Shown: positions 3,363 to 24,600 of the stretch, piece by piece
How the letters are laid out: every line of letters starts with the position of its first letter
Position numbering within the stretch: position 1 is the first letter of the stretch
Assembly: GCA_964425255.1 (NCBI GenBank)
Contig: CAYRMV010000002.1
Span: 765-64,764 of the forward strand
DNA from: an uncultured Flavobacteriales bacterium
Lineage (GTDB): Bacteria > Bacteroidota > Bacteroidia > Flavobacteriales_D > Crocinitomicaceae
Length of the DNA stretch: 64,000 nucleotides
Reading direction: 5' to 3'
The notes under the pieces: model-generated
The model's input: the letters and a program-made list of their open reading frames with translations, nothing else
The model's database searches: none
What the model was told of the DNA's origin: nothing
Made by a program: the position numbers and the translations under genes

Positions 3363-4347
3363 ACCCGTTGTGCATTTAGGCCAAATTTACTTTTAATTGA
3401 TTAATTGGTCGATTAAAAACGAATTTATTGAGATGTTGAATCACTGTAATAGCATTTATTTTTGATAGAATTCGGGTGCTATATCCTACGAATGTTTTTG
3501 CATAGTTACTTCTAATTCTAAACTGGTCACACATTTGAGAAAATAGTGTTTCAATTCTTTTTCTTCCCTTTTTAAACACATATGGTTGCTCCACGTAATT
3601 CGTTTGGTTTTTACGCATTGGTGTTTCAAGTTTAATCTGAACAGATTCAAACAAATTAAGTTGAATATCAGCTGATAAGTACCCCATATCACCGAGTAAA
3701 GTACATCTAGAATAGGTTGTTTTCACATCTTTCAACATATGTATATCATGAACTGACGCAGGCGTAATATCCACACTTTGAATCACTCCAGATAAGGAGC
3801 AGATTCCATGAAGTTTATAACCAAAGTAGTATGCTTTTTGTGAAGCGCAATAGCCTTTTGAAGGAAGGGCGTAATCTACATCACGACATATTTTACTTCT
3901 TGATGCACGAGCATTTTTACAAATCTCTAATGGCATCGAATCAATCACGTAAACATCTTCGAATTCATTAAAATCCTTAGCCAAAGTTTTTCTGACCTGT
4001 TCAATTTGAGCAAAAAGAGTTCGCTTTCTTCTATTATACACAGAACGTTCGATAAGACCTTCCAGAGGAGTACTCTTTATATCTCTAAATAATTGTAATT
4101 CAGAATGTATACCCATGTATTCAGCTGTAATGTTCAGCGCGATTAATTCTAAGTTTCCTAACTTAGGCTTACGGATTTGATGAAACGAATCAAGAGAAAT
4201 ATTCAATGATTGCAGATGTTTCAAAATAATTTCATAGTTTTGAATGAAGTTGCTCATAATATTTAATGACTTGGTAATCACTTAAATATACGAATTATTT
4301 ATGATTCAGTGAGTAACTTTTTCGTTTTTTCTAAATGCACAACGGGT
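3363..4347 (-). mobile_element. IS982-family insertion sequence, 985 bp, apparently intact
   Basis: Perfect 16-bp terminal inverted repeats: ACCCGTTGTGCATTTA at 3363-3378 and its reverse complement at 4332-4347. The ends begin with AC, as I recall for IS982. A single DDE transposase ORF fills the element, flanked by a 9-bp direct repeat. Confidence 0.85.
3376..4281 (-). CDS. IS982-family DDE transposase
   Basis: Motifs VIDSMPLEICK, GYCASQKAYYFGYKLHGICSLSGVIQSVDITPASVHD, LLGDMGYLS and RKRIETLFSQMCDQF match the IS982 transposase pattern. The track start at 4281 is GTG; the first ATG is at 4257. The stop codon lies inside the left IR. Confidence 0.85.
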   Translation of the reverse strand: MITKSLNIMSNFIQNYEIILKHLQSLNISLDSFHQIRKPKLGNLELIALNITAEYMGIHSELQLFRDIKSTPLEGLIERSVYNRRKRTLFAQIEQVRKTLAKDFNEFEDVYVIDSMPLEICKNARASRSKICRDVDYALPSKGYCASQKAYYFGYKLHGICSLSGVIQSVDITPASVHDIHMLKDVKTTYSRCTLLGDMGYLSADIQLNLFESVQIKLETPMRKNQTNYVEQPYVFKKGRKRIETLFSQMCDQFRIRSNYAKTFVGYSTRILSKINAITVIQHLNKFVFNRPINQLKVNLA

Positions 4348-4416: not shown

Positions 4417-6171
4417 ATGAAAAAAACATTACTTACGCTATCGTTGGCCTTTATTGGTTTTACGTCTTTTGGTCAAGTAGTTTTTTCGGTAGAAGAGCCG
4501 ATTCAAACAAACTACAATTTGACTTATTCAAACGAGTCTGGAGCTCAAGATTGGGGATCTCCTGACATGATGGATCCGGCAAATGTAGTATTAGACACAG
4601 TTGTTTTGGCTAGTGATCTTACTGCTGCTGATTCATTGATGTGTACTGCTGGTTCTCCTGCTGGTGCATACGCGGGTAAAATTGCCTTGTTGTACCGTGG
4701 AAGCTGTGAATTTGGTGCGAAGGCATTCAACGCTCAAACTGCAGGTGCTGTTGCTGTAATCATCATTAACAATACAGGTGGTGATCCAATTCCAATGGGG
4801 GCTGGTGCTGATGGTGCAAACGTTACGATTCCCGTTGTGATGATTTCTCAACAAGATGGTGCTGCACTTAGAGCAATGGTTGAAGCGGGTGTTGTTCGCG
4901 TGTTTATCGGTAACAAATCAGGTTACTATGAAAACGATTTAGGTTCAAACAAATCAAAGATTTTAATCCCTCGTCAGTTAGCTCTTCCTGCTACTTTGGC
5001 TCAAACAGGTGCTGAGTTTAACTTCAATTTAGGAATTTGGGTTCACAACTACGGTCAAAATGATTTGACTGGAATTACAGTAAACGCGAAAGTAGGAAAT
5101 GAAGGAGCAAACTTATACGACGAAACAAGTGCTGAATTTGATTTAACAGCTGGTGATAGTACGTTCATTGCTTTCGCTGATCCATTCCAAGAGGCAACTT
5201 ATGCTGCGGGTGATTATGTTTTAACATACACTATTACTCCATCTGATGTGCAAGATGATTACAACAACGATAACATCATCGTAACTAACTTCACGTTGAC
5301 GGATAACTTATTTTCGATTGCTCGCTTGGATGCAAACGGATTGCCAGAAATTGATGGTGGTACAAGAACTGCAACTGCTGGGGTACCATTTTTCTCTTCG
5401 TGTGTAGTTTTCCGTAACGAAAATGCAAACCGTTTAGGTGCAAGAGGTATGTGGTTTAGTGCTTCTAAAAATGCTGCTGATGGTACAATGGAAGGAGAAG
5501 AAATCATCGTTTCTGCTGATAGATGGAGCAATCAATTCAATACTTTGAGCGATTTGTTCCCTGGTGGAACAGTTGACCAAGCTAGTTTGAATGCTGCTTT
5601 TTCTGATTTAACTGAAATTACTTCTGGTTCATACGTGTATGACGAAGCATTGACAGATACAATGATTTATGTTGAGTTTGCTCAACCATTTGCTTTGGAA
5701 AATAACCAACGTTATTTATTTTGTGTAACAACTTTAACGGATAATGTATTCTTAGGGTATGATCGTCAAACAAAATATGATTTAGTAGAAGGGGAAGACG
5801 ATCAACCTACACAAGCAATCAAAGTGGGTTCTGACTTCTCATTTGGATTCCAAGGTGGAGATGTTCCAGCATTAGGTGTTAAAACATTCCCAATTGCTGA
5901 ATTAGGTTTGGTTGACGAAGAATTAGCTTCTTCTTCTTTCCCGAACCCAGCAAAAAATAACATTACAGTTAAAGTGGCTGGTTTCACTGGAAATGCGAAC
6001 TTGACTGTAACAGACATGGCTGGTCGCGTAGTTTTGACTGACGAAGTAACTGTTGCAAACGACGGAACATTTGGTGTAAACACAACATCATTGAACAACG
6101 GAATGTATATCTTCAAAATGATTACAGCTGAAGGTGGTAAATCTACTTTCAACGTAGTGATTTCGAAATAA
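4417..6171 (+). CDS. secreted PA (protease-associated) domain protein with T9SS C-terminal sorting domain
   Basis: The true start is the ATG at 4417 (MKKTLLTLSLAFIGFTSFGQ signal peptide). The track ORF starts at a GTG at 4309, inside the IS flank. PA-domain pattern GKIALLYRGSCEFGAKAFNAQTAGAVAVIIINN...IPVVMISQQDG. C-terminal FPNPAKNNITVKV...GMYIFKMITAEGGKSTFNVVISK is T9SS CTD-like. Confidence 0.75.
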   Translation: MKKTLLTLSLAFIGFTSFGQVVFSVEEPIQTNYNLTYSNESGAQDWGSPDMMDPANVVLDTVVLASDLTAADSLMCTAGSPAGAYAGKIALLYRGSCEFGAKAFNAQTAGAVAVIIINNTGGDPIPMGAGADGANVTIPVVMISQQDGAALRAMVEAGVVRVFIGNKSGYYENDLGSNKSKILIPRQLALPATLAQTGAEFNFNLGIWVHNYGQNDLTGITVNAKVGNEGANLYDETSAEFDLTAGDSTFIAFADPFQEATYAAGDYVLTYTITPSDVQDDYNNDNIIVTNFTLTDNLFSIARLDANGLPEIDGGTRTATAGVPFFSSCVVFRNENANRLGARGMWFSASKNAADGTMEGEEIIVSADRWSNQFNTLSDLFPGGTVDQASLNAAFSDLTEITSGSYVYDEALTDTMIYVEFAQPFALENNQRYLFCVTTLTDNVFLGYDRQTKYDLVEGEDDQPTQAIKVGSDFSFGFQGGDVPALGVKTFPIAELGLVDEELASSSFPNPAKNNITVKVAGFTGNANLTVTDMAGRVVLTDEVTVANDGTFGVNTTSLNNGMYIFKMITAEGGKSTFNVVISK

Positions 6172-6193
6172 GATTTTCTTCTATTTGATTTTT

Positions 6194-6217
6194 AAAGCCT
6201 CGGGAAACCGGGGCTTT
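6194..6217. terminator. bidirectional intrinsic terminator hairpin between convergent genes
   Basis: A 10-bp stem pairs AAAGCCTCGG with CCGGGGCTTT (one G-T wobble) around a GAAA tetraloop. Followed by TTTTC on the + strand and preceded by an A/T run. Confidence 0.7.
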
Positions 6218-6231
6218 TTCGTTTTCATTGA

Positions 6232-7146
6232 TTAGGAAAATCGCAGCAAGTGGATCTTTGGTCCAACGGTGAACGTTGCAGCACCCGTTAATGGATAAAC
6301 CTCTCCATCCACTTCCAAATACGCTTTTTGATCAATTGCTTTTACTGTAACCGTTTTTCCTGAAAAATAATGAACTTCCGGATGTTGGATGTGAATTCCT
6401 TTTTTCAATTTCCCCAATTGTTTCACATAATCCAACAGAGAAACATTTCCGATAAAAGTAAATCCCAATTGCTCGTCTTGGCAATTCGCTTCGGGATGAA
6501 TCACGATTCCATCGCCAAAGGTACTGCTGTTGCAAACAGCCAAAAGCAAGCTGGCTTGTTTTCGATCAAATTGTTCAGATTGAATATGTAAAATAGGCTT
6601 TTGAAACGAGACAAATGCCCGAAGAATCGATAGAGGATAAGCCAATTTCGTTGATTGAAAAAGACGTCGTTGCTGATTGACTAAATGCATCACGTAGCCA
6701 CCAAAACCAATGTCGGCAATGTTTAATCCATAAAACAACTGCGTTTCCGTTTGAATGGAAATGGTGTCGACCTGTTCGGTTTTTTTGGTCAGGATTGCTT
6801 TTTGAAAGCTTTCTAATTGGAATTTAGGTTGCCAAACGCGAAGAAAGTCATTGCCTGTTCCGGATGCGATAAAACCCAAAATCGGCTGGTGAGAATCGGA
6901 GAAATCCAATCCATTGATAATCTCGTGAAACGTTCCATCTCCTCCGCCAACTAGGATACAGTCCACTTGTTGAATTTGAGCATTACGCGCTAACTGTTTG
7001 GCATGACCAGCAAATTCGGTAGGCAAAATGATCAAGTTGAATTCATTTTGCTCCAAAAAGAGAAGCGCAGCCTCCAACGACCGCGACTTTCTTCTTTTTC
7101 CATGGTATATGACCGCAACAGTTTGGATTTTATCTTCCGTCGCCAT
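6232..7146 (-). CDS. lipid kinase, diacylglycerol kinase catalytic-domain family (YegS/BmrU-like)
   Basis: Motifs [30 protein letters not shown] and ASGTGNDF. Start chosen at MATEDKIQ (ATG 7146). The upstream part of the track ORF (to 7389) overlaps the AIM24-like gene in another frame. Confidence 0.75.
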
Positions 7147-7942
7147 CGAGTAGATTTCCAAGTCCTCCAAGGATACTTCCTTCTTCTTTTCGTGTTCCTG
7201 TTCCATAGGCCAAAATACGTGATGCCAAGCGAGAAATGGGTAAGGTTTGCAGCCAAACATCTCCCGGTCCACGAAGCGTAGCAAAAAACATTCCTTCACC
7301 ACCAAATAAGGTATTTTTGATTCCACCCACAAATTGAATATCGTAATCGATTTCTTGGGTGTAAGCAACAATACAACCAGTATCAACACGCAATACTTCG
7401 CCCGGTTTTAAGGTGCGTTTCATGACATGACCGCCTGCATGACAAAAAGCCAAACCATCGCCTTCTAATTTTTGCATGATGAAACCTTCACCACCAAACA
7501 AGCCCGTTCCTAATTTTCGCTGAAATTCAATTCCGACAGAAACACCTTTCGCAGCACATAAAAATGCATCTTTTTGACAAATGATTTTTCCACCCAATTC
7601 AGCCAAATCGAGAGGGATAATTTTTCCCGGATAGGGTGCAGCAAAAGCAACGCGCGCTTTCCCCGTTCCTTGATGCGTATATGCAGTCATAAACAAACTT
7701 TCGCCCGTCAACAAACGTTTTCCAGCACCCAAAATTTTATTGAAAAAGCCGCCGTTACGCTGTTCCGATCCATCACCAAAAATGGTTTCCATCTGAATTC
7801 CGTCATCCATAAACATGAATGAACCAGCCTCAGCAATCGCCGTTTCCTGTGGATCAAGCTCAATTTCCACTAATTGCATCTCTTCCCCACGGATTTCGTA
7901 ATCTATTTCATGATTTGTTCTCATCGTTGTTTCTTTTTTCAA
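7130..7942 (-). CDS. TIGR00266/AIM24 (DUF124) family protein
   Basis: [39 protein letters not shown] and [24 protein letters not shown] are the pattern I recognise for this family. An alternative start is at 7924 (MRTNHEIDY). Confidence 0.7.
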
Positions 7943-7996
7943 ACGTACAATTTTTTTTCATGCGAAGCAGACAAAACGAAGTTTTCGTCAAACTCA

Positions 7997-8167: not shown

Positions 8168-9544
8168 ATGCAATTCATCGGTCAAACAACAGACACCATT
8201 TGTGCACTTTCCACCGCCAATGGAATGGGGGCAATCGCAGTCATACGCGTATCAGGAAAAGACGCACTTCGCATCGTTTCACAGGTTTTCACCAAAAATT
8301 TGGAAGATGTCATAAGCCATACTGCTCATTTTGGTCGAATCAAAGAACCAAACGGTGGGATTATCGATGAGGTTTTGGTAACTGTTTTAAAAGATCAACG
8401 CAGTTTTACAGGTGAAAATACCGTAGAAATCGCCTGTCACGGATCGACATTTATTCAACAACAAATTTTACAATTGCTTACTGCACAAGGTTGTCGTTTG
8501 GCGCAGCCGGGAGAATTTACGATGCGTGCCTTTTTGCACGGGAAACTGGATTTATCCCAAGCAGAAGCTGTTGCAGATTTAATTGCATCTGAGAACAAAC
8601 GAGCACATCACGTCGCGATGAATCAAATGCGTGGTGGATTTTCAACTGAATTACAGCAATTGAGAGAAAAATTGATTCATTTTGCCAGTTTGGTCGAATT
8701 GGAACTCGATTTTGCGGAGGAAGACGTAGAATTTGCAGACCGAACCGAGTTGAAAGCCTTAGTTTCGGAGGTAATTACGTATAAGAAGCGTTTGATACAA
8801 TCGTTCCAGCTTGGAAACGCCATCAAAAAAGGGGTACCCGTTGCCATTGTTGGTGCGCCAAATACAGGGAAAAGTACCTTACTGAATCAATTGTTGGGCG
8901 ACGACCGAGCGATTGTTAGTAACATTGCAGGTACCACACGTGATGTCATTGAAGAAACCTTGACCATCGATGGCATTTTGTTTCGTTTGATTGATACCGC
9001 TGGAATTCGTGATAATGCAGAAGAAATTGAAGCCATGGGGATTGAGCGTTCCAAACAAAAAATTGAACAAGCAACGATTATTTTATGCATGGCGGACACA
9101 ACCATTGAAACCAGTTTGAACGAGGTTTTAAACTGGGCAGAGCAACTTCAACGTGATCACAGCGATAAAAAAGTACTCGTTCTTGCTAACAAAACCGATG
9201 TTTCACAAGTCACAGTTGGAGATTATCCGGTTCCTGTTTTGTTTGTGAGCGCCAAAGAGGGCATCGGAATGGAAATTCTACGAAACGAATTGGTTTCCCT
9301 TGTCACAGGCGATTTTGATTTGGCACAAGAAACCATCGTCACCAATGCTCGTCATGTCGATGCCTTACAACAAGCCGTTACCGCGCTCGAACAAGCCCAA
9401 CTCGGACTCGAAACCAACATCACCGGCGACTTTGTAGCGATGGACATCCGCCAAGCCATGTTCTACCTCGGCCAAATCACCGGCGACATCTCCACCGACG
9501 ATTTGTTAGGAAATATTTTTGCGAAGTTTTGTATTGGGAAGTGA
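8168..9544 (+). CDS. mnmE: tRNA uridine-5-carboxymethylaminomethyl(34) synthesis GTPase MnmE
   Basis: N-terminal DTICALSTANGMGAIAVIRVSG, G-domain GAPNTGKSTLLN / DTAGIR / NKTD, and the C-terminal FCIGK motif typical of MnmE/TrmE. Confidence 0.95.
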   Translation: MQFIGQTTDTICALSTANGMGAIAVIRVSGKDALRIVSQVFTKNLEDVISHTAHFGRIKEPNGGIIDEVLVTVLKDQRSFTGENTVEIACHGSTFIQQQILQLLTAQGCRLAQPGEFTMRAFLHGKLDLSQAEAVADLIASENKRAHHVAMNQMRGGFSTELQQLREKLIHFASLVELELDFAEEDVEFADRTELKALVSEVITYKKRLIQSFQLGNAIKKGVPVAIVGAPNTGKSTLLNQLLGDDRAIVSNIAGTTRDVIEETLTIDGILFRLIDTAGIRDNAEEIEAMGIERSKQKIEQATIILCMADTTIETSLNEVLNWAEQLQRDHSDKKVLVLANKTDVSQVTVGDYPVPVLFVSAKEGIGMEILRNELVSLVTGDFDLAQETIVTNARHVDALQQAVTALEQAQLGLETNITGDFVAMDIRQAMFYLGQITGDISTDDLLGNIFAKFCIGK

Positions 9545-9576
9545 TTTGTTTCAGTTATAACATTGCAAAAACAAAA

Positions 9577-9603
9577 AAGCGAATCCGAGAGGCATTCGCT
9601 TTG
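9577..9603 (+). terminator. intrinsic terminator of mnmE
   Basis: Stem AAGCGAATCC / GG(C)ATTCGCTT with one bulge and a GAGA loop, followed by TTTG. Confidence 0.6.
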
Positions 9604-9678: not shown

Positions 9679-10035
9679 TTATAATGCCAAGAGATAATTT
9701 TCTAAATTTTTCTCACTGAATTTGAAAACAGGAAGCTCTGTATAAAATCTATTTCGCTTGTTTTGAGTGGATTCAACAGTTATCAGCATTGTACGTATAG
9801 CTTCTGACGCATCTTTTAAATGTATTGTTAAGCCATTTTGTTCTTTAAGTTTCATGCGTTCTTTGTGAAACTGATCTGCAAATGAACGCGACATGAAAAC
9901 TACTTCTGTAAAATCAAAAACAACATTTCTAGCCTGATTTTCGTTGACAAAATCAAACAATAAAACAGCCGCTTCGCGAGAGTTTAAAGTTTCTCCGAGG
10001 TGATTAAATACGATTATATCTAGTGTATTTTCCAT
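9679..10035 (-). CDS. small STAS-like (DUF4325-like) protein, putative anti-anti-sigma-type partner
   Basis: 118 aa. The pattern NVVFDFTEVVFMSRSFADQF resembles the STAS/SpoIIAA core (xDFxxVxFxxSxxxxxL). It is the last gene of the co-directional cassette. Low GC. Confidence 0.55.
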   Translation of the reverse strand: MENTLDIIVFNHLGETLNSREAAVLLFDFVNENQARNVVFDFTEVVFMSRSFADQFHKERMKLKEQNGLTIHLKDASEAIRTMLITVESTQNKRNRFYTELPVFKFSEKNLENYLLAL

Positions 10036-10093
10036 TTTTTAGAAGTGCAAAGTTAGTACTTTACTTTTACTAATTTACAAAAAAAAATTAAAA

Positions 10094-11011
10094 CTACAAA
10101 TCTGTATATGAATGAATTGTAAAATTATCATTTCTATATAGTGGAATTCTTAAATTTAGCATACAACCTTTAAATTCAATTTGTTCATTGATAGAAATTA
10201 TTTCTTCTTTTTCATGATTTTGCATAAAAAAACCATTTCCTGTCATCATAAAAAATTGACCTTTCAAGCCTTTTGTTAACATATTTCTAGTTGTGTTAAG
10301 TCCAAACCCTCTGCTTTCGGGGATGTTTTTTGTCGATTTTCCGTATACACCAAAATTAATTGCTTCGGCATTGGATTTTGGGTTGTGCTTTCCACTATCC
10401 AAATAGGATTGAAGCAATCCTTTGCCCATATCACAAATGCTTAAATCAAGGTATTTTTTTTCGGGATAAAACTGTAAAAATACTGTACCAAATGAAATCG
10501 CTGAGTGGTCAACAATATTTTGAGTCAACTCATCCAACATGTAATAAATACCAGACAATAAATTAATCGGTAAATTTAGTTGCTTTTTTAGAATTGAGTT
10601 GACAGCAGTTAAAACATTTTCTCGAAATTCTGCTTGTTGTTTTAAACTTGAGGTTGGAAAATGAATAATTGGTATATATGATTTGCTTTCATAATATTCG
10701 AATGAAAGAGAGTGATTTACTTCTGAATTTGTTAAATCTAAAAAGTCTTCATGAAAGTGAATCGTCTTTAAATAACTGCTTTCATTTATGACAGATATTT
10801 TTGTACCTTGATTTTTTTTATGCCTTAATAGGCAACTTAAAGGACCAATATAATGTGGTACAATAAATTTATTTCCTTCAAAATCAACAATTATTTCATC
10901 CAAATCTACATTTAAATCTGGCAATATTTTTAAAAATTTATTGATGGCATCTCCAAAACTGTCATCAAATCGTTCAGGAACTTTTATTGTTAGTGTTGTT
11001 TGCATAATCAA
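10094..11011 (-). CDS. GHKL (Bergerat-fold) ATPase / SpoIIAB-RsbW-like putative serine kinase with extra N-terminal domain
   Basis: The C-terminal half carries an N-box ELTQNIVDHS, a G1 box CDMGKGL and a G2 box SRGFGLNTTRNM. The N-terminal ~120 aa (IIVDFEGNKFIVPHYIGPLSCLL) is possibly STAS-like. Confidence 0.65.
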   Translation of the reverse strand: MIMQTTLTIKVPERFDDSFGDAINKFLKILPDLNVDLDEIIVDFEGNKFIVPHYIGPLSCLLRHKKNQGTKISVINESSYLKTIHFHEDFLDLTNSEVNHSLSFEYYESKSYIPIIHFPTSSLKQQAEFRENVLTAVNSILKKQLNLPINLLSGIYYMLDELTQNIVDHSAISFGTVFLQFYPEKKYLDLSICDMGKGLLQSYLDSGKHNPKSNAEAINFGVYGKSTKNIPESRGFGLNTTRNMLTKGLKGQFFMMTGNGFFMQNHEKEEIISINEQIEFKGCMLNLRIPLYRNDNFTIHSYTDL

Positions 11012-11050
11012 TCCTTCAAAAACCCATACATATAAACCCTCGACTTGTTC

Positions 11051-12394
11051 TTATCTCTTTAAATTAATTTCCAAAAAATTATTAAAAGTAAGCGTGTAAA
11101 CCTCAACGTATCCTTCCAAATAGGTATATAAATTGGGAGACACTTTTTTCGGAGATAAATTTAACAGTGAGTTTGAAAATAGTTCTATACTTAATTTTTC
11201 ATCAAATTTATTTTCAATGAAAGCAGGATCAATTATTGTTATTTTTATTTCAGGATTATGAATCAAAGCAGTTTTTATACTTTCGTTTATATGTTCATCA
11301 CCAAATCCGTAGCCTATAATAAATAATCTATTAGCAAATAAACAATCTCTATCAAAAGCAGATATCATTTGTTTAAAAGGTGTTACTGCTGTTTTTGCTG
11401 TTTTTTGATAACCTGTAATTATATTCGTCAACATAATAGTTTTTCCCTTATCCATTTGCCTTGTTGCTTGTTCCCATAGATTAGATGAAAAACTAGGTAC
11501 TCCTTTTAAATAAAATTCAGAAGCAGGTAGTTGCTGATTATTTCTTGATCTAACATCCCAATATGCAGATCCATGTAAATTGTAAAGTACTGTTGAGTCA
11601 AAATCAGAAAGTATTCTTCTTACATTCGCTTGAATCATATCACCGGAATTAACAGATGCTCCACACTCAAATCCTTCAAATACTTTTATTCCTCTGTTTT
11701 CTAGTATTACTTTAAAAAGACGATCGTAGTTTAATGTATACATTCTTGTAATACCACTATCTCCAGAAATATTTTTTATCCAACTATAAAAACGATCATT
11801 CAAAACTTTATTAGTTTCATTCTCGATAACATTTGTTTTTCCATTCGTGTAGTAAGAATATTTTGAAATATGTCCAATAATTCCACTCAATAAGTTCGAC
11901 AATAGTAGCTGAAAATAAAACTGTTCAGGATTCTCATTGTTGAAAGAACACTTATCTGCTTCAGGAAAATCAGGAATTATCAATTGATATCCATGCACAG
12001 AAACACCTCCTACAATTTCAAAATTTAAAATATCATCCATTATTTCTGAAGCGTTAATGAAGCATTTCATAAGTGAGGTCTTTGTGTTGTTTCCAAAATT
12101 TGAATAGTAAGTAATTAACTCATCGATAATATTTATAATCGTTTCAAAATTTATATCATGCTCACTAAAACCATTGTGTTTCAAGGTTTCATATATTTTA
12201 TTACTAATGCGCTCACCACTCTTAGTTTTAAAGCCTCTTTCTCTAATTAAATGAGTTAAACAACATACTCTATTCTTAATTTCACCCGTTTCTCGTTCAG
12301 GCAAAAAAGTTAATTTATCGCCATTACATAGTGTTTTAGGTGCACCCCAATCAATAACAGCACCAGCACCGAATAGAAATACATTCCTTTTCAT
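11051..12394 (-). CDS. SIR2-family (SIR2_2-type) protein, putative NAD+-consuming defence effector
   Basis: Gly-rich NAD loop FLFGAGAVIDWGAP at the N-terminus, YTLNYDRL, catalytic-His motif YNLHGSAYW, and IIGYGFGDEHIN. The ATG lies 2 nt after the stop of the MmeI-like gene. Very low GC: 20-27% on the two 60-nt lines I counted. Confidence 0.7.
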   Translation of the reverse strand: MKRNVFLFGAGAVIDWGAPKTLCNGDKLTFLPERETGEIKNRVCCLTHLIRERGFKTKSGERISNKIYETLKHNGFSEHDINFETIINIIDELITYYSNFGNNTKTSLMKCFINASEIMDDILNFEIVGGVSVHGYQLIIPDFPEADKCSFNNENPEQFYFQLLLSNLLSGIIGHISKYSYYTNGKTNVIENETNKVLNDRFYSWIKNISGDSGITRMYTLNYDRLFKVILENRGIKVFEGFECGASVNSGDMIQANVRRILSDFDSTVLYNLHGSAYWDVRSRNNQQLPASEFYLKGVPSFSSNLWEQATRQMDKGKTIMLTNIITGYQKTAKTAVTPFKQMISAFDRDCLFANRLFIIGYGFGDEHINESIKTALIHNPEIKITIIDPAFIENKFDEKLSIELFSNSLLNLSPKKVSPNLYTYLEGYVEVYTLTFNNFLEINLKR

Positions 12395-12396
12395 TT

Positions 12397-15150
12397 TTAG
12401 CTTTTTCTTTTCTTCTTCACTTTCTCCACCGCAAACAACCCACTCGTATATTTCTCATACAATTCAAACAAAAACTCCATGCGTTTGGCGTCTGTGGAAA
12501 AATCTTGTTTGCTGTAGGCTAAGTCTACGGCTTTGTCTAACTCGTTGTGTGCTTTTACCAAAGTGGGCGGCATGGTTAAAGGATCATACAAATCTGCCAA
12601 GGAACTATTTGGAAACGTTGCACGCGCATCCAATACTTTTTGTGCCGCTCTTTCGATCTGTTCTTTTTGTTTGTCTGTGGGGTTTTCAGGCCAAGGGAAG
12701 TTGTTGTAGACGACAGAATTAGAGTATCTGTAATCACTTTTTAATCTGCCACAAAGACTTTTAACCCAAGTCATATGCATTTCAGAAGTTAAAATTCCAA
12801 AATGAAACAACTTGGCATTCGGGATAATTAAACAAAGGTTGCTTGCTATAACGTCTGCAGACATAAAGCCAATCGGAATAAATTTTCTTCGTTCTGATGA
12901 AACACTTGGGATAATTACATATTCTGTCTCATTATGTGAAACGAAAGCAAATAGTGAAGGACTACTAGCTAATTCTCTAGTGTCTTTTCGTGTGCTATTT
13001 TCTCTAAATTCTTTGACCTTTTTAAGTCTATCAGTTATGAACGATGAATTTCTTAATTGAATGGGTTCCGCGTCTTTTAGCCAAAGACAATAACGAGGTA
13101 TATTATAGATAAACTCAACGCTTCCAACATATCTTCTAATGTGTTTTTCTATGAAAGGTTCGGCATAAACAGCTTCATTTTTTTCTTCTTGATTCATTAG
13201 TAGAAAACCACCATCAATAGGTTGGTTCCCAAACTTTATCTTAGGAACATTACAAATTGCATTCGATGATTTATTGATAATAATATCCTTTGCATCCACC
13301 AAATACGGATTGATGTTTTTTGCAACAATTTCTATGGGTTCTCCCTTAATATCGGGATATTCAAACAGCAATTTTTTAGCAGTATCAAAATTTGCAAAGC
13401 CAACAATGACACAATAAACGGCAGCATTTCCTTTTGCTTCGTTGCTCCATTTAAACGTACGATGGGCAAAGTGAATTTTAATGTGATATTTGTTGAGTAA
13501 AGTTCCCCAGAGAATACTTGTTTGTTCGCCTTGTACAATGGAATTAGTAGACACAAAAGCCGTTTTAATGGTTGTTCCTTGCATGTACTTGGCTGCTTTT
13601 ACATACCAGCCTGTTACATAATCCAAAACACCACAACCAGCGATATTATCAAATTCTCTAACAATTTGGTCTCTTTGTGTTTGCGTCATTATTTTTGAAC
13701 CAATAAACGGCGGATTTCCAATGATATGAGTTAGTTCTTTTTTCGAAACAACCGTTTCCCAATCAGTTTCCAAAGCATCTGCATATACAATATTCGCACT
13801 TTTTGTCAAAGGCAAGCGCGCAAAATACTGCCCAAACTCCATGCTCATTTTGAGGTTCATTTGGTGGTCCATTAGCCACATGGCTACTTCGGCAATTCGC
13901 GCAGGAAATTCTTCGTATTCAATACCCGCCATTATGTCCACATCCAAGAGCGCCACGTCTTTCAACTCCACAACAACACGGTCGTTTCCGTAAATGTGGC
14001 TCAACACAGCCAATTCCAATAAGCGCAATTCGCGGTAGGTAATCACCAAGAAATTTCCACATCCACACGCAGGGTCTAAAAACTTCAGTTTACTCAATCG
14101 CTCATGAAAGGCGTTCAATTTTGCTTTGTTGGTTTTGATGCTTTCAAATTCTGCCCACAATTCATCCAAAAACAAAGGCTTAATGAGTTTGAGAATGTTT
14201 TTTTCGCTCGTGTAATGCGCCCCCAAGTTTCTGCGTTCTTTCGGGTCCATCACACTTTGGAACATCGAACCAAAAATCGCAGGAGAAATTTTACTCCAAT
14301 CCAAGTAACAACATTCCAACAAGGTTTGGCGCATCTTGGAATCAAAATGAGCAACGGGCAAAATCTCTAGAAACAATTTTCCGCCCACAAACGGGAAAGC
14401 GTTCAGTTGTTCGTCCAAATTCTTGAAACGTTTTTCCATAGGCGTGTTCAACACTTGGAAAATTTCTTGAATTTTTGCGGCTAAATCACTTCCGTCTTCA
14501 CTCGTTCGTTCTTCAATAAAATCTTGAAATTGTTGTTTCTCAAAAATACTCGTGTCTTCGGCAAACAAACAAAACAGCAAGCGCACCAAATACACTTCCA
14601 ACGGATGACCTTCATAACCAATTTCTTGCAAACGATCGTGGAGTTTTCCCATCAATTCGGCTGCTTTCACGTTTACAGGGTCTTCTTCGCGGTACACTTT
14701 TTTCTGATAGCCCGCAATGAAACCAAAGAGTTCCACGTGATGTACAAATTCATGTAATTTGAATTCGATGTATTCGTCTTCACCCGTTTCTTCTAAATCG
14801 TACAAACGAAAGGTTTCAAAATCACACACCAACACATATTTCGGAATATCCAATTTATGCAATCCGTGAATGTATCCTTTAGCTTGTCCGTATGCTTTCG
14901 TAAGGTCTTTTCCCTTGCTTTTCATTTCCACCAACAGCCAACCTTTCCACAGCATGTCGATGTAGCCATCGCTGTTGCCCAATTTTTTTACTTTGTGTTC
15001 AAAAGCAGCCACTTTTCGTTGGTTTAGTCCAAACACGTTGAAAAAGTCAACCAAAAAAGGTTTAGCATCTGCGTCTTCGCTAAATGTTCCTTCCCATTCT
15101 ATTGAAAAAGCGAGCGCTCTTTCCTTAATTTCATTCCAGCTAAGTGCCAT
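12397..15150 (-). CDS. MmeI-family type IIL (IIG) bifunctional restriction endonuclease / N6-adenine DNA methyltransferase
   Basis: The N-terminus MALSWNEIKERALAFSIEWEG...AKPFLVDFFNVFG...YIDMLWKGWLLVEMKSKGKDL follows the MmeI nuclease (D...EXK) pattern as I recall it. SAM motif I FLDPACGCGNFLV; catalytic motif IV IIGNPPF. Length is 917 aa, against about 919 aa for MmeI. Confidence 0.85.
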   Translation of the reverse strand: MALSWNEIKERALAFSIEWEGTFSEDADAKPFLVDFFNVFGLNQRKVAAFEHKVKKLGNSDGYIDMLWKGWLLVEMKSKGKDLTKAYGQAKGYIHGLHKLDIPKYVLVCDFETFRLYDLEETGEDEYIEFKLHEFVHHVELFGFIAGYQKKVYREEDPVNVKAAELMGKLHDRLQEIGYEGHPLEVYLVRLLFCLFAEDTSIFEKQQFQDFIEERTSEDGSDLAAKIQEIFQVLNTPMEKRFKNLDEQLNAFPFVGGKLFLEILPVAHFDSKMRQTLLECCYLDWSKISPAIFGSMFQSVMDPKERRNLGAHYTSEKNILKLIKPLFLDELWAEFESIKTNKAKLNAFHERLSKLKFLDPACGCGNFLVITYRELRLLELAVLSHIYGNDRVVVELKDVALLDVDIMAGIEYEEFPARIAEVAMWLMDHQMNLKMSMEFGQYFARLPLTKSANIVYADALETDWETVVSKKELTHIIGNPPFIGSKIMTQTQRDQIVREFDNIAGCGVLDYVTGWYVKAAKYMQGTTIKTAFVSTNSIVQGEQTSILWGTLLNKYHIKIHFAHRTFKWSNEAKGNAAVYCVIVGFANFDTAKKLLFEYPDIKGEPIEIVAKNINPYLVDAKDIIINKSSNAICNVPKIKFGNQPIDGGFLLMNQEEKNEAVYAEPFIEKHIRRYVGSVEFIYNIPRYCLWLKDAEPIQLRNSSFITDRLKKVKEFRENSTRKDTRELASSPSLFAFVSHNETEYVIIPSVSSERRKFIPIGFMSADVIASNLCLIIPNAKLFHFGILTSEMHMTWVKSLCGRLKSDYRYSNSVVYNNFPWPENPTDKQKEQIERAAQKVLDARATFPNSSLADLYDPLTMPPTLVKAHNELDKAVDLAYSKQDFSTDAKRMEFLFELYEKYTSGLFAVEKVKKKRKS

Positions 15151-22097: not shown

Positions 22098-22114
22098 TCC
22101 AAAAAAGGGGCAAA

Positions 22115-22549
22115 ATGTTTTCAAAAGCATGTGAATACGGAATTCGGGCAATCATCTTTATTGCGACCCAGTCGATGCAAGGCAAGCGCGTAAAAATTGG
22201 GGAGGTTGCTGTGGAATCCAATTCGCCAGAAGCATTCACTGCTAAGGTGCTGGGGGCGCTCACCAAGCATAACATTGTTCAGTCGCACACGGGGCCCAAC
22301 GGCGGGTTTAGTGTCTCGGACGAACAGTTGCGAAAAACGAAATTGAGCGATATCGTGTTCGCCATTGATGGCGATGCGATCTACAACGGGTGTGCGCTCG
22401 GGTTGGATCAGTGCAACAGCGAGCGTCCGTGTCCGCTGCACCATAAGTTTGTCCAAGTGCGGGCAGACTTGAAAAAGATGCTTGAGAACAACACCATTTT
22501 TGATTTAGCGACAGATCTGAATTCTGGAAATTTTACGCTGAAGCGCTAA
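22115..22549 (+). CDS. Rrf2-family transcriptional regulator (NsrR/IscR-like, three-Cys cluster)
   Basis: MFSKACEYGIRAIIFIA winged-helix N-terminus and CALGLDQCNSERPCPLH (C-x6-C-x5-C), as in Fe-S-binding Rrf2 regulators. Confidence 0.85.
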   Translation: MFSKACEYGIRAIIFIATQSMQGKRVKIGEVAVESNSPEAFTAKVLGALTKHNIVQSHTGPNGGFSVSDEQLRKTKLSDIVFAIDGDAIYNGCALGLDQCNSERPCPLHHKFVQVRADLKKMLENNTIFDLATDLNSGNFTLKR

Positions 22550-22596
22550 AAAAATTTGAATTAATTTAAGACAAAAACATCGTAAATTAGAGAAAG

Positions 22597-22884
22597 ATGG
22601 AAATGCAACAAAAAACATGGTTTGATCGCCAAGCAGATCAGTTTGAACGCGGAAGATTTGGTTGGATGACGGTATACCTAACGGCTCAGAGCTGCTGGGG
22701 TTCGATTGCAGCGATGCTCAGTCTGCGCGCGGATGATTACATCTCGCTTGGTATTTGCGCTAGTGTGACCATGGCCTCCAACGCAGCATTCATTGCCCAA
22801 GGACCGGCAAAATGGTGTTTGGGCTTACTGTATGTAAGCGCTGTCACCAATCTGTTGCTGATTATGTACCACTTGATTTTTTGA
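22597..22884 (+). CDS. small hypothetical membrane protein
   Basis: 95 aa with two to three hydrophobic segments. Sits in the GC-rich NO-stress cluster. No family recognised. Confidence 0.4.
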   Translation: MEMQQKTWFDRQADQFERGRFGWMTVYLTAQSCWGSIAAMLSLRADDYISLGICASVTMASNAAFIAQGPAKWCLGLLYVSAVTNLLLIMYHLIF

Positions 22885-22886
22885 CA

Positions 22887-23276
22887 ATGAAAAAAGACAT
22901 TACAGAACTAGCTGACATCGAACGCTTGGTGCATTCGTTTTATGCTGAGGTTAGACAGGATCTGACACTTGGACCCATTTTTGAAGCCAAGATTCAAGAT
23001 CGCTGGGACGAGCACCTGGAGAAGATGGTGCGTTTTTGGCAAACGGTTTTACTCGATCAACACACCTATTCTGGTAGTCCATTCGCACCTCACGCGAACC
23101 TTCCAGTGGCCCATGTACACTTTGAGCATTGGATGGCGGTGTTCAACCACACGGTTGACGCACTGTTTGAGGGCGAAAAGGCAGAACGGGCGAAGTGGCA
23201 AGGCGCTCGCATGGCAGAAATGTTTTCGTACAAGATTGCCTATATCCGTGAGCATCATCAAACTCCAGTCCTATGA
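22887..23276 (+). CDS. group III truncated haemoglobin-like globin
   Basis: Start at MKKDITELADIERLVHSFYAEV (ATG 22887, 2 nt after the preceding stop). The LGPIF...W..HL.KM..FW......Y.G.PF..H pattern is typical of truncated haemoglobins. Confidence 0.7.
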   Translation: MKKDITELADIERLVHSFYAEVRQDLTLGPIFEAKIQDRWDEHLEKMVRFWQTVLLDQHTYSGSPFAPHANLPVAHVHFEHWMAVFNHTVDALFEGEKAERAKWQGARMAEMFSYKIAYIREHHQTPVL

Positions 23277-23713
23277 AAATCAATCCTGCGAGCGCTGTAG
23301 CGATCACCTTCTTGTGGCTCGGTTTTGTCGGCGCGATTAGTTTCATGGAAGCTTGGCTGAAGTTTCGGGCGCCCGGTATTACGCTTCCGCTCGGTTTAGG
23401 CATCGGTCGACTGGTTTTTGGCGCGCTGAACAAGGTAGAATGGGTCTTGGCCATAGCGCTACTCGTTCCCTTGCTTCGCCAGGGATTCCCCTTGGGCAGT
23501 TCCGACCGCTTGTTGCTCATTCCGTTGGTAATTTTGCTGTTGCAAACGGTTTGGCTACTGCCGGTGCTAGATCACCGCGCTGCCTTGCACATCGAGGGGC
23601 AGATGGTGGAAAAATCGCTCCACCACGTGTATTATGTGGGGTGCGAGCTGGTGAAAGTGGTGTTCCTCGTCTGGTTCGGGGTAGCCTACCTGCGCGGACT
23701 TTCGTCGGTGTAA
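23273..23713 (+). CDS. hypothetical integral membrane protein
   Basis: 146 aa with four hydrophobic segments. Its ATGA start overlaps the globin stop. Confidence 0.45.
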   Translation: MKINPASAVAITFLWLGFVGAISFMEAWLKFRAPGITLPLGLGIGRLVFGALNKVEWVLAIALLVPLLRQGFPLGSSDRLLLIPLVILLLQTVWLLPVLDHRAALHIEGQMVEKSLHHVYYVGCELVKVVFLVWFGVAYLRGLSSV

Positions 23714-23758
23714 TCGCCAATGAATCAAAGGGAGTATCACATCTATAAACACACGAAT

Positions 23759-24457
23759 ATGAACGAATTAAAAACGAGCATCATCGGTCAACTCGTTGCC
23801 GAGCATCCGGACGTCGCGAAGGTTTTTTCCAACTACCAAATCGATTTCTGCTGCCAAGGAAATAGACCGTTGTCGGAGGTGCTAACGCCGGAAAACGAAC
23901 GTCAACTGCTGGCAGAGCTCCAAGTGGCGATGAAATCCGAGCAGCAAACGACGATGGACTTTCGCGACTGGCCCTTGGATCTATTGGTGGACTACATTGT
24001 AAAGAAACATCACCGGTATGTCGAGGAACGCTCGCAGGAAATCAAGGCATCTCTGGCCAAAATCGTTGCTGTGCACGGAGCTAAACACCCCGAATTGATT
24101 GAGCTTGAGCGCTTGTTTTTGCAGTCGGCGGGTGACTTAGCGGTACACATGAAAAAGGAGGAATTGGTCTTGTTCCCGTACATCCAGCGAATGCTTGGAA
24201 AGAAGGAAGCAACCCATGGTTTTGTGGAACATCCCATCGCCGCGATGCACGATGACCACAACCAGGAGGGCGAGCGTTTCCGGGCAATGTCTGTGCTCAC
24301 CAATGGGTATCGAGCACCAGCGGATGCTTGTACGACGTACCTGCTTACCTTCCAGCGCTTGGCAGAGTTTGAACGCGATTTACACATGCATATTCACTTG
24401 GAAAACAATATCCTCTTTCCGCGTGCGCTTGCTCTCGAAACGTCGCTTCGAAGCTAA
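23759..24457 (+). CDS. ytfE: iron-sulfur cluster repair di-iron protein (RIC / YtfE / ScdA family)
   Basis: N-terminal ScdA_N pattern VFSNYQIDFCCQGNRPL, and hemerythrin-like H/E motifs (KKHHRYVEE, HMKKEELVLFP, HDDHNQEGE, HIHLENNILFP). An alternative upstream start is at 23720. Confidence 0.8.
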   Translation: MNELKTSIIGQLVAEHPDVAKVFSNYQIDFCCQGNRPLSEVLTPENERQLLAELQVAMKSEQQTTMDFRDWPLDLLVDYIVKKHHRYVEERSQEIKASLAKIVAVHGAKHPELIELERLFLQSAGDLAVHMKKEELVLFPYIQRMLGKKEATHGFVEHPIAAMHDDHNQEGERFRAMSVLTNGYRAPADACTTYLLTFQRLAEFERDLHMHIHLENNILFPRALALETSLRS

Positions 24458-24600
24458 GAGACATTTCCGATAGGCGGGTGCAGGGAGTTTTGGTGAGGGA
24501 GGACGTTCAGTGCGTCCGCTCATCCCACTCCAATTACCATTCATACTTTTTTGAGTAGGATGAAAACGATACATTTTCAATATTTGGAAAAAACTACGAA

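Follow-up and report, generated by a model that had tools for sequence, protein, structure and literature searches.

VapKSC systems consist of a kinase (VapK), a STAS antitoxin (VapS), and a PIN toxin (VapC), and work on CapKS and VapKSC has shown that such a kinase phosphorylates the STAS protein, freeing the toxin upon exposure to single-stranded DNA (ssDNA) or DNA damage (Chambers et al., EMBO J 2026, PMC13373217). CapKS is sandwiched next to restriction-modification (R-M) systems in ∼20% of cases (88 of 443 lie directly downstream of an R-M system), and the published VapKSC list includes Bacteroidota members, all of them with VapC (PMC13373217).

The window analyzed here (the whole stretch of 64 000 nucleotides) carries a minus-strand array of four tightly packed genes within a low-GC island (28–29% GC vs a background of ∼39%). 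In transcription order, these encode an MmeI-family enzyme (15150 to 12397), a SIR2_2 protein (12394 to 11051), a kinase-type protein, K (11011 to 10094), and a STAS-like protein, S (10035 to 9679), with intergenic gaps of 2, 39, and 58 nt. The features of the locus are as follows.

12397–15150, minus strand: MmeI-family type IIG restriction-modification enzyme, 917 aa; first gene of cassette 1.
11051–12394, minus strand: SIR2_2 protein, 447 aa, of NADase type by its motifs; second gene of cassette 1.
11008–11055, minus strand: relic of the 3′ end of a gene X, forming the SIR2–K spacer and marking the cassette junction by DNA alignment.
10094–11005, minus strand: K, a VapK-like STAS + GHKL serine-kinase-type protein, 303 aa, assigned by profile homology.
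10048–10055, minus strand: candidate promoter box for S, TAACTTTG, a match to the Bacteroidota-type −7 element.
9679–10035, minus strand: S, a single STAS-like (DUF4325-type) protein, 118 aa, assigned by family Pfam scans and fold.
9566–9601, minus strand: hairpin and T-run terminator, read from the sequence, ending both the K–S cassette and the four-gene array.

The terminator consists of AAGCGAAT, a 9-nt loop, and ATTCGCTT, followed by TTTTGTTTTT; its hairpin is 96% conserved in locus L016. It is convergent with mnmE (8168–9544, plus strand), only 134 nt separating that gene from S. With their short gaps and one common terminator, all four genes are probably transcribed together, and they may be functionally linked at this locus. 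That they are real genes and not chance reading frames follows from the dN/dS of 0.06–0.16 among homologues and from the island's GC content. The layout given in an earlier note on this DNA, with co-directional SIR2, K, and S frames at these coordinates and a SIR2 gene beginning 2 nt past the MmeI stop, is accurate, and every motif it quoted is present in the translations.

Adjacent K and S genes recur in 26 further distinct loci (28–95% identity), and S lies directly downstream of K in 26 of 26 where the contig continues. None of these 26 loci carries the SIR2 gene, and none of the 40 other distinct loci with a SIR2 orthologue has the K–S pair. DNA comparison places the meeting point of two cassettes at ∼11056–11058: similarity between the window and L011 covers MmeI and SIR2 only and ends at 11058, similarity to L116, L007, and L010 begins at 11055–11056, and the 91% nucleotide identity to L115 is confined to 10994–9567. 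At the far end of the K–S cassette, similarity to L115, L116, L007, and L016 ends at 9564–9569. Across three loci with three different upstream partners, both K (dN/dS 0.14–0.16) and S (0.06–0.10) are under purifying selection. We conclude that the locus is probably a small island gained by horizontal transfer, in which two independent cassettes share one orientation: MmeI–SIR2 (15150–11051) and a VapK/VapS-like switch (∼11056–9566). The earlier note had cast the SIR2 protein as a third component gated by the kinase/STAS pair and had named a neighborhood census as a test capable of refuting this; with the three genes lacking conserved co-occurrence elsewhere, that proposal does not stand. The kinase/STAS pair, for its part, now has precedents in the published CapKS and VapKSC.

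The junction between the cassettes also bears a trace of its history. On alignment, the 39-nt SIR2–K spacer preserves what is left of the 3′ end of gene X: the stretch at 11008–11055 reads DKNKSRVYMYGFLKD and a stop, where X in L116 ends in DKIKPKVYAYEFLKE and a stop, and the spacer DNA aligns with the 3′ ends of X in L116, L117, L010, and L007. X encodes ∼810 aa and stands intact upstream of K–S in L116, L117, and L010, while L007 and the window keep only remnants of it; its homologues also occur alone, without K–S, on small plasmids of several phyla. In the lineage of the window, the K–S cassette probably once followed X, which MmeI–SIR2 later replaced. Preceding K–S in its closest relatives, X is a candidate new effector.

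The likeliest start of K is the ATG at 11005, which matches its homologues and gives 303 aa, while the ORF finder took a TTG at 11011 (305 aa). In the 305-aa numbering, it comprises a STAS-like domain (residues ∼1–120) and a GHKL domain (∼125–305). HATPase_c scores 18.7 bits for the window protein alone, under the Pfam cut-off, but is detected in 24/29 family members (HATPase_c_2 in 16/29), and the AF2 model (pLDDT 88.6) displays an alpha/beta N-domain and a Bergerat fold. Its top Foldseek matches are SpoIIAB/UsfX (probability 1.0), the SpoIIAB entries 1til, 1tid, and 1th8 being matched at a target TM of 0.64–0.69, also with probability 1.0. The previous assignment of this protein as a GHKL ATPase is supported by family and fold but leaves out the N-terminal domain, which makes K a STAS + GHKL protein.

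With VapK, K shares this architecture, its length (303 vs 302 aa), and homology over the full length. Alignment of the K family profile with VapK by hhalign gives 95.4% probability (E 1.7e-8) over 265 columns across both domains, and BLASTP of K against VapK gives 22% identity over the full length (E 6e-8). The BLASTP alignment pairs F49 of K with F54 of VapK and N165 with N160. F49 is kept in 28/29 sequences and the kinase Asn, N165, in 29/29 (VapK included), and E161, D194, G196, R234, G235, and G237 are likewise conserved in 28–29 of these sequences, the G1 and G2 boxes being retained. By this alignment, F49 would be equivalent to F54 at the predicted ssDNA site of VapK.

The relationship to CapK is narrower: similarity between the K profile and the first 253 residues of CapK is confined to the N-box region (69% probability), where SELIGNVRDHS in CapK corresponds to DELTQNIVDHS in K. 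Both CapK–CapS and K–S pair a GHKL kinase with a STAS substrate, and the window pair lies downstream of R-M, as CapKS frequently does. Unlike CapK, however, K has no N-terminal HTH and starts directly with the STAS-like domain, and S (118 aa) is without the C-terminal wHTH DNA-binding domain of CapS. CapKS also sits upstream of the immune operon that it regulates, whereas K–S is the last unit before the terminator and has nothing downstream to regulate because mnmE is convergent. SpoIIAB/SpoIIAA and RsbW/RsbV resemble K–S in combining a Bergerat-fold serine-kinase-type domain with a STAS antagonist fold, and are the best Foldseek matches of K and S among small proteins, but K is twice the size and carries an extra N-terminal STAS-like domain, and K–S, which has no adjacent sigma factor or PP2C phosphatase gene, behaves as a mobile cassette.

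S taken alone scores 16.9 bits for STAS and 14.0 bits for DUF4325, both under the Pfam cut-offs; across the family, DUF4325 is found in 23/26 members and STAS in 21/26. Its model (pLDDT 80.9) has a confident STAS core (residues 1–91) and a low-confidence tail (92–118) with a terminal helix, and Foldseek matches it to RsbS, SpoIIAA, and RsbV (TM 0.54–0.58), which bears out the earlier identification of a 118-aa STAS-like protein. The motif F-M-S49-R-S51-F-A-D is near-invariant, position 49 being Ser or Thr in 27/27 family members and position 51 Ser in 26/27, and the C-terminal tail, LPVFKFS...YLL, is conserved. In position and architecture (a STAS core and a tail, directly downstream of K), S matches VapS, but its tail carries a different conserved motif, and comparison of the profiles shows no significant similarity between the two (4% probability). 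A TAnnTTTG box, TAACTTTG, lies 12 nt ahead of the S start, inside the K–S spacer; the same −7 box recurs in this spacer in 20/26 other loci and is missing where K and S overlap. Judged by its sequence, it is possibly a separate promoter for S.

S is 93–95% identical whether the upstream gene encodes SIR2, a Schlafen-type helicase, or X, which argues against specific binding between S and SIR2. Because its tail is conserved whatever the neighbors, S should have as its partner either K or some conserved protein of the host, not SIR2. The modularity, the homology to VapK, and the residue conservation come directly from the sequence comparisons; ssDNA sensing, phosphorylation, and any output of the switch we infer. 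Judging from the homology of K to VapK and CapK, ssDNA bound between its two domains would probably activate the kinase via F49 and the nearby K185; K would then phosphorylate S on residue S49 (or S51), with a resulting change in the binding partner of S. On the same basis, it is plausible that this GHKL kinase/STAS pair serves as a phospho-switch in anti-phage defense. On this reading, K–S is a large VapC-less branch of the VapK/VapS family, which would extend the range of the ssDNA-sensing kinase module beyond CapKS and VapKSC.

The neighborhoods of K–S are varied. Like VapKSC, the pair is often found near R-M or other defense genes: it is preceded by R-M or DISARM-type genes in the window, L016, L026, L005, and L034. 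In ∼10 of 27 loci, a gene for a large defense-like or uncharacterized protein lies just upstream on the same strand at a distance of 2–113 nt, the upstream genes being SIR2 (window), DrmD (L034), a Schlafen-type helicase (L115), X (L116, L117, L010, and as a remnant in L007 and the window), and small uncharacterized genes that follow R-M systems (L016, L026). Upstream of K–S, roughly half of the loci carry nothing but housekeeping genes (RuvB, TrmB, aldose epimerase, ABC transporter, infB). Toxin–antitoxin (TA) or Abi genes are found nearby in L007, L116, and L003, and a temperate Bacteroides phage carries K–S in its accessory region. The K family comprises 272 clusters at E ≤ 1e-30, mostly from Bacteroidota and including phage-borne members. 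Clustering of neighbors across 26 K–S loci, the window among them (with L117 and the phage copy examined on their own), recovered no conserved neighbor besides S. The annotations of the K–S loci, precomputed or run here, contain no PIN match, and the window has no VapC toxin gene; neither VapC nor any other conserved third gene accompanies K–S in 27 loci. Since the Bacteroidota members of VapKSC all have VapC, K–S forms a separate branch. Adjacent genes for a sigma factor or PP2C phosphatase were found in 0/27 loci. A SpoIIE-domain gene was seen only once, in L003, at a distance of ∼6.5 kb downstream.

Several other accounts of K–S were weighed. It is unlikely, in our view, that K–S is a self-contained, two-gene TA-like or abortive module in which K or the K–S complex is itself the effector and might, for instance, phosphorylate targets in the host or, after phosphorylation or depletion of S, sequester a host factor. 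Such a module would accord with an autonomous mobile unit of ∼1.5 kb that has its own terminator and a promoter-like box before S in 20/26 loci, with the copy in a temperate phage's accessory region and the TA/Abi neighbors in three loci, and with the S tail, whose conservation implies a conserved partner. In the homologous VapKSC, however, the toxin is a separate protein, and we know of no GHKL-type kinase toxin, which also counts against this account.

A slightly more doubtful proposal is that K–S is a portable ssDNA-sensing switch that regulates whichever effector is encoded directly upstream. The ∼10/27 loci with a large defense-like or uncharacterized gene in that position, the existence of K modules fused to SF2 helicases, the match of K to the N-terminus of a DrmA model, and the placement of CapKS next to R-M systems in ∼20% of cases (PMC13373217) all lend it some weight. 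Applied to the window, it would have ssDNA from MmeI cleavage of invading DNA cause K to phosphorylate S, perhaps unleashing the SIR2 NADase; this version, to which we give equally little credence, would, if true, couple restriction to abortive infection. Yet the tail and core of S are conserved regardless of neighbor, which fits poorly with a protein that binds unrelated effectors directly. Moreover, around half of the loci offer only housekeeping genes upstream, the plasmid homologues of X manage without K–S, S has no DNA-binding domain, and K–S lies downstream, not upstream, of its putative targets.

Still less credible is a housekeeping partner switch, that is, an anti-sigma factor and its antagonist acting on a sigma factor or stress regulon and not in defense. 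Family members are indeed annotated in IMG as anti-sigma regulatory factor and anti-anti-sigma factor, the best small-protein Foldseek matches are SpoIIAB and SpoIIAA, and many K–S loci have housekeeping surroundings. Against these stand the 0/27 loci with an adjacent sigma factor or PP2C phosphatase gene, a patchy, cassette-like distribution with 91% nucleotide identity across different flanks, a GC content low relative to the host, the phage-borne copy, and the full-length relationship of K, with its extra STAS domain and ssDNA-site Phe, to VapK and not to the 140-aa SpoIIAB class. Finally, a dedicated three-gene abortive-infection system, in which K/S would hold the SIR2 NADase inactive until infection, draws on the tight, co-directional packing of the genes (gaps of 39 and 58 nt) and on the toxin gating by the homologous pair in VapKSC (PMC13373217), but is rendered highly improbable by its absence from all 26 K–S and 40 SIR2 loci outside the window, by the cassette boundary at ∼11056–11058, by the origin of the spacer from X, by the 93–95% identity of S beside entirely different upstream genes, and by close SIR2 homologues (67–78% identity) that stand alone or with MmeI only. 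Reading the locus as two cassettes avoids mistaking neighbors brought together by chance for a new three-gene SIR2 defense system.

In the first of these two cassettes, all five Pfam MmeI domains are recognized in the product of the MmeI gene (E 1e-87 to 4e-23), so that N-terminal nuclease, helical spacer, MTase, TRD, and C-terminal domains are all present in one polypeptide. The PADLOC REase_MTase_IIG model covers residues 2–903 with 1212 bits, and the DPACGCGNF and NPPF motifs are found in the translation. For the 447-aa protein that follows, Pfam SIR2_2 (PF13289) scores 35.2 bits against a cut-off of 24.5, in agreement with the SIR2 domain reported before, and the best PDB sequence matches are 8w9l and 8j4u, both deposited as "SIR2-like domain-containing protein" and probably belonging to SIR2-HerA-type systems. 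Among 34 homologues, G9, H274, D366, and H368 are invariant and N222 is near-invariant (at least 90%). The protein thus resembles the SIR2 NADase effectors of SIR2-HerA, ThsA, DSR1/2, and SIR2-pAgo in its SIR2_2 domain, in its GAG, N222, and H274 motifs, and in the defense-island neighbors of its family. It differs from them in being a stand-alone protein without HerA, SLOG, pAgo, or the large (>1000-aa) DSR sensor; no such partner is present in the window or among the annotated or clustered neighbors of the SIR2 loci. PADLOC SIR2 models give only partial matches (at most 66 bits), and the NCBIfam SIR2_antiphage model scores 38 bits against a cut-off of 500.

The recurrent partner of this SIR2 family is instead a type IIG R-M enzyme, a pairing of which we found no description in the literature. 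With its intact Asn/His active site, the SIR2 protein may be an NAD+-consuming, second-line effector that travels with the restriction enzyme and perhaps backs it up, and the recurrent combination of type IIG R-M with a stand-alone SIR2 could serve as a simple model for first-line restriction coupled to NAD+ depletion. A type IIG gene adjoins SIR2 in 9 of 41 distinct loci, a raw count without a background rate and with many short contigs among the loci. Among loci with an informative upstream gene, the type IIG gene is at position −1 in 8/30, with one further case at +1, and the stop of the type IIG gene and the start of SIR2 frequently overlap.

The array comprises two independent cassettes, MmeI–SIR2 and K–S. 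By ORF reading, it consists of four co-directional genes spaced by 2, 39 and 58 nt, with the convergent mnmE (8168–9544) following S at its end:

12397–15150 (−): MmeI-type gene, type IIG restriction-modification (R-M) enzyme, 917 aa
11051–12394 (−): SIR2 gene, SIR2_2 protein, 447 aa
10094–11011 (−): K gene, kinase-type protein, 305-aa ORF
9679–10035 (−): S gene, STAS-like protein, 118 aa

The earlier note had read the last three genes as one candidate partner-switch-gated abortive-infection system, and the four ORFs, their layout and all quoted motifs are indeed present in the window. All five domains of the MmeI-type enzyme are found by Pfam, and the SIR2 identity holds (SIR2_2, 35.2 bits vs a cut-off of 24.5). 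HATPase_c, STAS and DUF4325 are all sub-threshold in Pfam on the window proteins taken singly; at family level, HATPase_c is detected in 24/29 K members and HATPase_c_2 in 16/29, and DUF4325 and STAS in 23/26 and 21/26 S members, respectively. Family-level Pfam and AF2/Foldseek models therefore confirm the domain observation, with one amendment: K has the Bergerat fold expected of a GHKL protein and carries an additional STAS domain, making it a STAS+GHKL protein.

The reading of these genes as a three-part system is not supported. We compiled 26 other distinct K–S loci from the neighbourhoods of K homologues and a GTDB genome scan (including locus L117 and a phage copy), and 41 distinct SIR2 orthologue loci, window included. 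SIR2 homologues occur in 0/26 of the former and K or S in 0/40 of the other SIR2 loci; conserved co-occurrence of SIR2, HATPase and DUF4325/STAS was thus not seen outside the window.

DNA comparisons locate the junction. In the closest K–S relative, L115, where a MazG-like gene and a Schlafen-type helicase lie upstream of the pair, 91% nucleotide identity with the window is confined to 10994–9567 (K, S and terminator), and in L116, L007 and L010 similarity reaches further left, to 11055–11056. The alignment of the SIR2-side locus L011 (MmeI 69%, SIR2 78% identity) runs from 14727 to 11058 and ends there. From these limits, the two cassettes therefore meet at about 11056–11058. The K–S cassette ends in a hairpin terminator, recognized by eye and by DNA comparison with relatives; owing to its 9-nt loop, this hairpin 3′ of S escaped the terminator scan. 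GC content is 28–29% in the 10–12 kb segment vs a background of ∼39%.

In the window's closest relatives (L116, L117 and L010), a protein of ∼810–820 aa, X, ends 2–12 nt 5′ of K:

L116, 6588–9017: X
L117, 6536–8998: X
L010, 3–1112: X, fragment
Window, 11008–11055 (−): in-frame remnant of the X C-terminus, between SIR2 and K

The 39-nt SIR2–K spacer can be aligned to the 3′ end of X, whose reading frame it preserves as DKNKSRVYMYGFLKD*. Judging by this alignment, the MmeI–SIR2–K–S order evidently arose when MmeI–SIR2 took the place of X in an X–K–S arrangement. Purifying selection acts on K and S (dN/dS 0.14–0.16 and 0.06–0.10, respectively) in three loci, each with a different gene upstream, and S is 93–95% identical across them.

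X has no match in Pfam, PADLOC or PDB, and the L010 fragment gives a weak Ras-like match below the cut-off (E 5e-4). X homologues without K–S are found on small plasmids (NZ_CP090070.1, NZ_KM583817.1, NZ_LC523991.1) from several phyla, in the genera Acinetobacter, Helicobacter, Fluviibacter, Lactobacillus and Bacillus, and X is a candidate accessory or defence gene. In L007, X is split: a C-terminal 128-aa remnant (7614–7991) lies directly 5′ of K, and the N-terminal 42 aa (11109–11234) are found ∼2 kb 3′ of S, past an MqsR-like/SocA_Panacea pair and adjoining DUF6088/AbiEii, which suggests rearrangement or insertion into X. Two short genes considered as degraded SIR2 were rejected: the 195-aa gene of L016 has no SIR2 similarity, and the 146-aa gene of L007 is an X remnant.

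The notion of a kinase/STAS switch is vindicated by a published relative, VapKSC (Chambers et al., EMBO J 2026, PMC13373217). In that work, ssDNA activates CapK (HTH-STAS-GHKL), whose phosphorylation of the STAS-wHTH repressor CapS lifts repression of neighbouring immune operons; of 443 capKS pairs, 88 have an R-M system directly upstream. VapKSC has three proteins: VapK of 302 aa (STAS-GHKL), VapS of 116 aa (a STAS domain with a short tail) and VapC, a PIN toxin that is released when VapS is phosphorylated. Mutation of VapK F54 abolished protection (PMC13373217). Using VapK, VapS and partial CapK sequences taken from the AF3 files of that paper, we found that the K family profile matches both VapK domains along 265 columns (95.4% probability, E 1.7e-8). 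Pairwise BLASTP (E 6e-8) aligns K F49 with F54 and N165 with N160, and places DMGKG opposite DFGVG and RGFGL opposite RGLGL; F49, N165 and the DMGKG/RGFGL residues are conserved in 28–29 of 29 K sequences. The match to CapK, compared over its residues 1–253, is limited to the surroundings of the N-box. These comparisons show K to be a VapK homologue whose predicted kinase and ssDNA-site residues are intact.

S shares the architecture of VapS, but its tail differs and the two sequences have no significant similarity. Its motif F-[MIV]-S49-R-S51-F-A-D has Ser or Thr at S49 in 27/27 family members, and its tail, LPVFKFS...YLL, is kept in all gene contexts, showing that this STAS protein conserves both a Ser and its tail. 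Every Bacteroidota member in the published VapKSC list carries VapC (PMC13373217), whereas the K–S pairs lack it: clustering of neighbours across loci revealed neither VapC nor any other conserved third gene beside K–S. Literature searches on DUF4325 and on STAS-like plus HATPase pairs returned nothing specific.

Fold assignments for K and S come from AF2 and Foldseek, the latter with a library extending to April 2026 and without the CapS or VapS–VapC structures 9Z71-73 and 9Z7O. The K model (pLDDT 88.6, pTM 0.89) combines an N-terminal alpha/beta domain with a Bergerat fold, its top small-protein matches being SpoIIAB and UsfX. The S model (pLDDT 80.9) has a STAS core resembling RsbS, SpoIIAA and RsbV, in line with the STAS-like reading of the earlier note, and a low-confidence tail terminating in a helix. 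PDB sequence searches with K, the K profile and the S profile gave no significant match. A full-library profile search yielded 272 K clusters at E ≤ 1e-30 and 1309 at E ≤ 1e-10, with members nearly all ∼300 aa and helicase fusions rare.

Every cellular K–S locus that has an organism title is from Bacteroidota. Wherever the contig continues, S lies 3′ of K at a spacing of −4 to ∼118 nt, and it is the sole universal neighbour of K. The Bacteroides phage BF1-TP2 (L121, PQ571263.1) carries the pair at 5013–6256 in an accessory region after the lysis genes, annotated as 'ATP-binding protein' (gp43) and 'DUF4325 domain-containing protein' (gp42); the two genes share 4 nt, and neither VapC nor SIR2 is present. 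About a third to a half of the loci have recognizable defence or mobile genes near K–S:

Window and L016: MmeI
L026 and L005: type I R-M
L034, 600–3524: DrmD-type DISARM helicase, 22 nt upstream of K–S (E 6.5e-201)
L115: Schlafen-type helicase and MazG
L003: AbiV and integrases
L007: AbiE and Panacea toxin–antitoxin genes
L116: HicA

The remaining loci have housekeeping surroundings (e.g. RuvB, TrmB, aldose epimerase, infB and ABC transporters). One K homologue, P0318 (1266 aa), combines an SF2 helicase and the STAS+GHKL module in a single protein, and the module matches the N-terminus of the PADLOC DrmA model PDLC02567; together with the DrmD neighbour in L034, these suggest a recurrent tie to DNA-tracking defence helicases. 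On the Nostoc plasmid pANSO36B (L122, 1914–3158), a 415-aa 'DUF4325 domain-containing protein' matches K residues 36–258 and may be a fused K–S protein.

A Bacteroidota-type −7 box, TAnnTTTG, was recognized by eye just 5′ of the S start (10048–10055, −) and recurs in the K–S spacer of 20/26 other loci, being absent where K and S overlap; this putative promoter suggests separate expression of S. A sigma-70 scan, whose model does not cover Bacteroidota promoters, gave fewer sites than in shuffles. Rfam at the gathering threshold found no RNA families, tRNA included, in the whole 64 kb (1–64000).

SIR2 is a full-length SIR2_2 protein with conserved GAG, N222 and H274 motifs, belonging to a family with >463 matches. 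Its closest PDB entries by sequence are 8w9l and 8j4u ('SIR2-like domain-containing protein'), which we take to be SIR2-HerA-type SIR2s; the window protein lacks HerA, SLOG, pAgo and DSR-type regions, and no PADLOC or NCBIfam model reached a full-length score. In 8 of 30 loci with an informative upstream gene, SIR2 directly follows a type IIG R-M fusion of the MmeI or Eco57I/TaqI_C type, at −4 to +3 nt in 7/8 and often with the stop codon overlapping the start; in one further locus the type IIG gene is directly downstream:

L037, L047, L048, L057, L060, L061, L062, L011 and window 11051–15150: type IIG gene beside SIR2

Clustering plus Pfam identified these nine neighbours, and single-sequence phmmer three. 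By its motifs SIR2 has an intact active site, and its neighbourhoods repeatedly include a type IIG enzyme, a pairing (type IIG or MmeI with SIR2) on which our literature search found no paper. Other SIR2 neighbours include Shedu, PDC-S15/FRG, TOTE primase, Hypoth_Ymh and RhuM. The L060 type IIG gene also has an IS200-like Y1 transposase segment.

To known kinds of system the window adds two variants, a VapC-less VapK/VapS-like pair and a stand-alone SIR2 associated with type IIG enzymes. In the mechanism we propose, ssDNA would activate K, K would phosphorylate S at S49 or S51, and S would then switch partner; because the S tail is invariant across contexts, the new partner would be K or a conserved host protein, not SIR2. 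SIR2 would deplete NAD+ as a back-up to restriction. Local coupling, in which MmeI cleavage generates ssDNA and the K–S response releases SIR2, appears improbable, and the comparative data give it no support.

Elsewhere in the window, a 301-aa ORF at 3376–4281 (−), ∼5 kb from the island, resembles by eye an IS982-type DDE transposase. A possible nitrosative-stress cluster of small ORFs lies at 22100–24500, where GC content rises to 52%; judged by eye, its products look like an Rrf2-type regulator, a globin-like protein, a membrane protein and a di-iron protein of the hemerythrin/RIC type.
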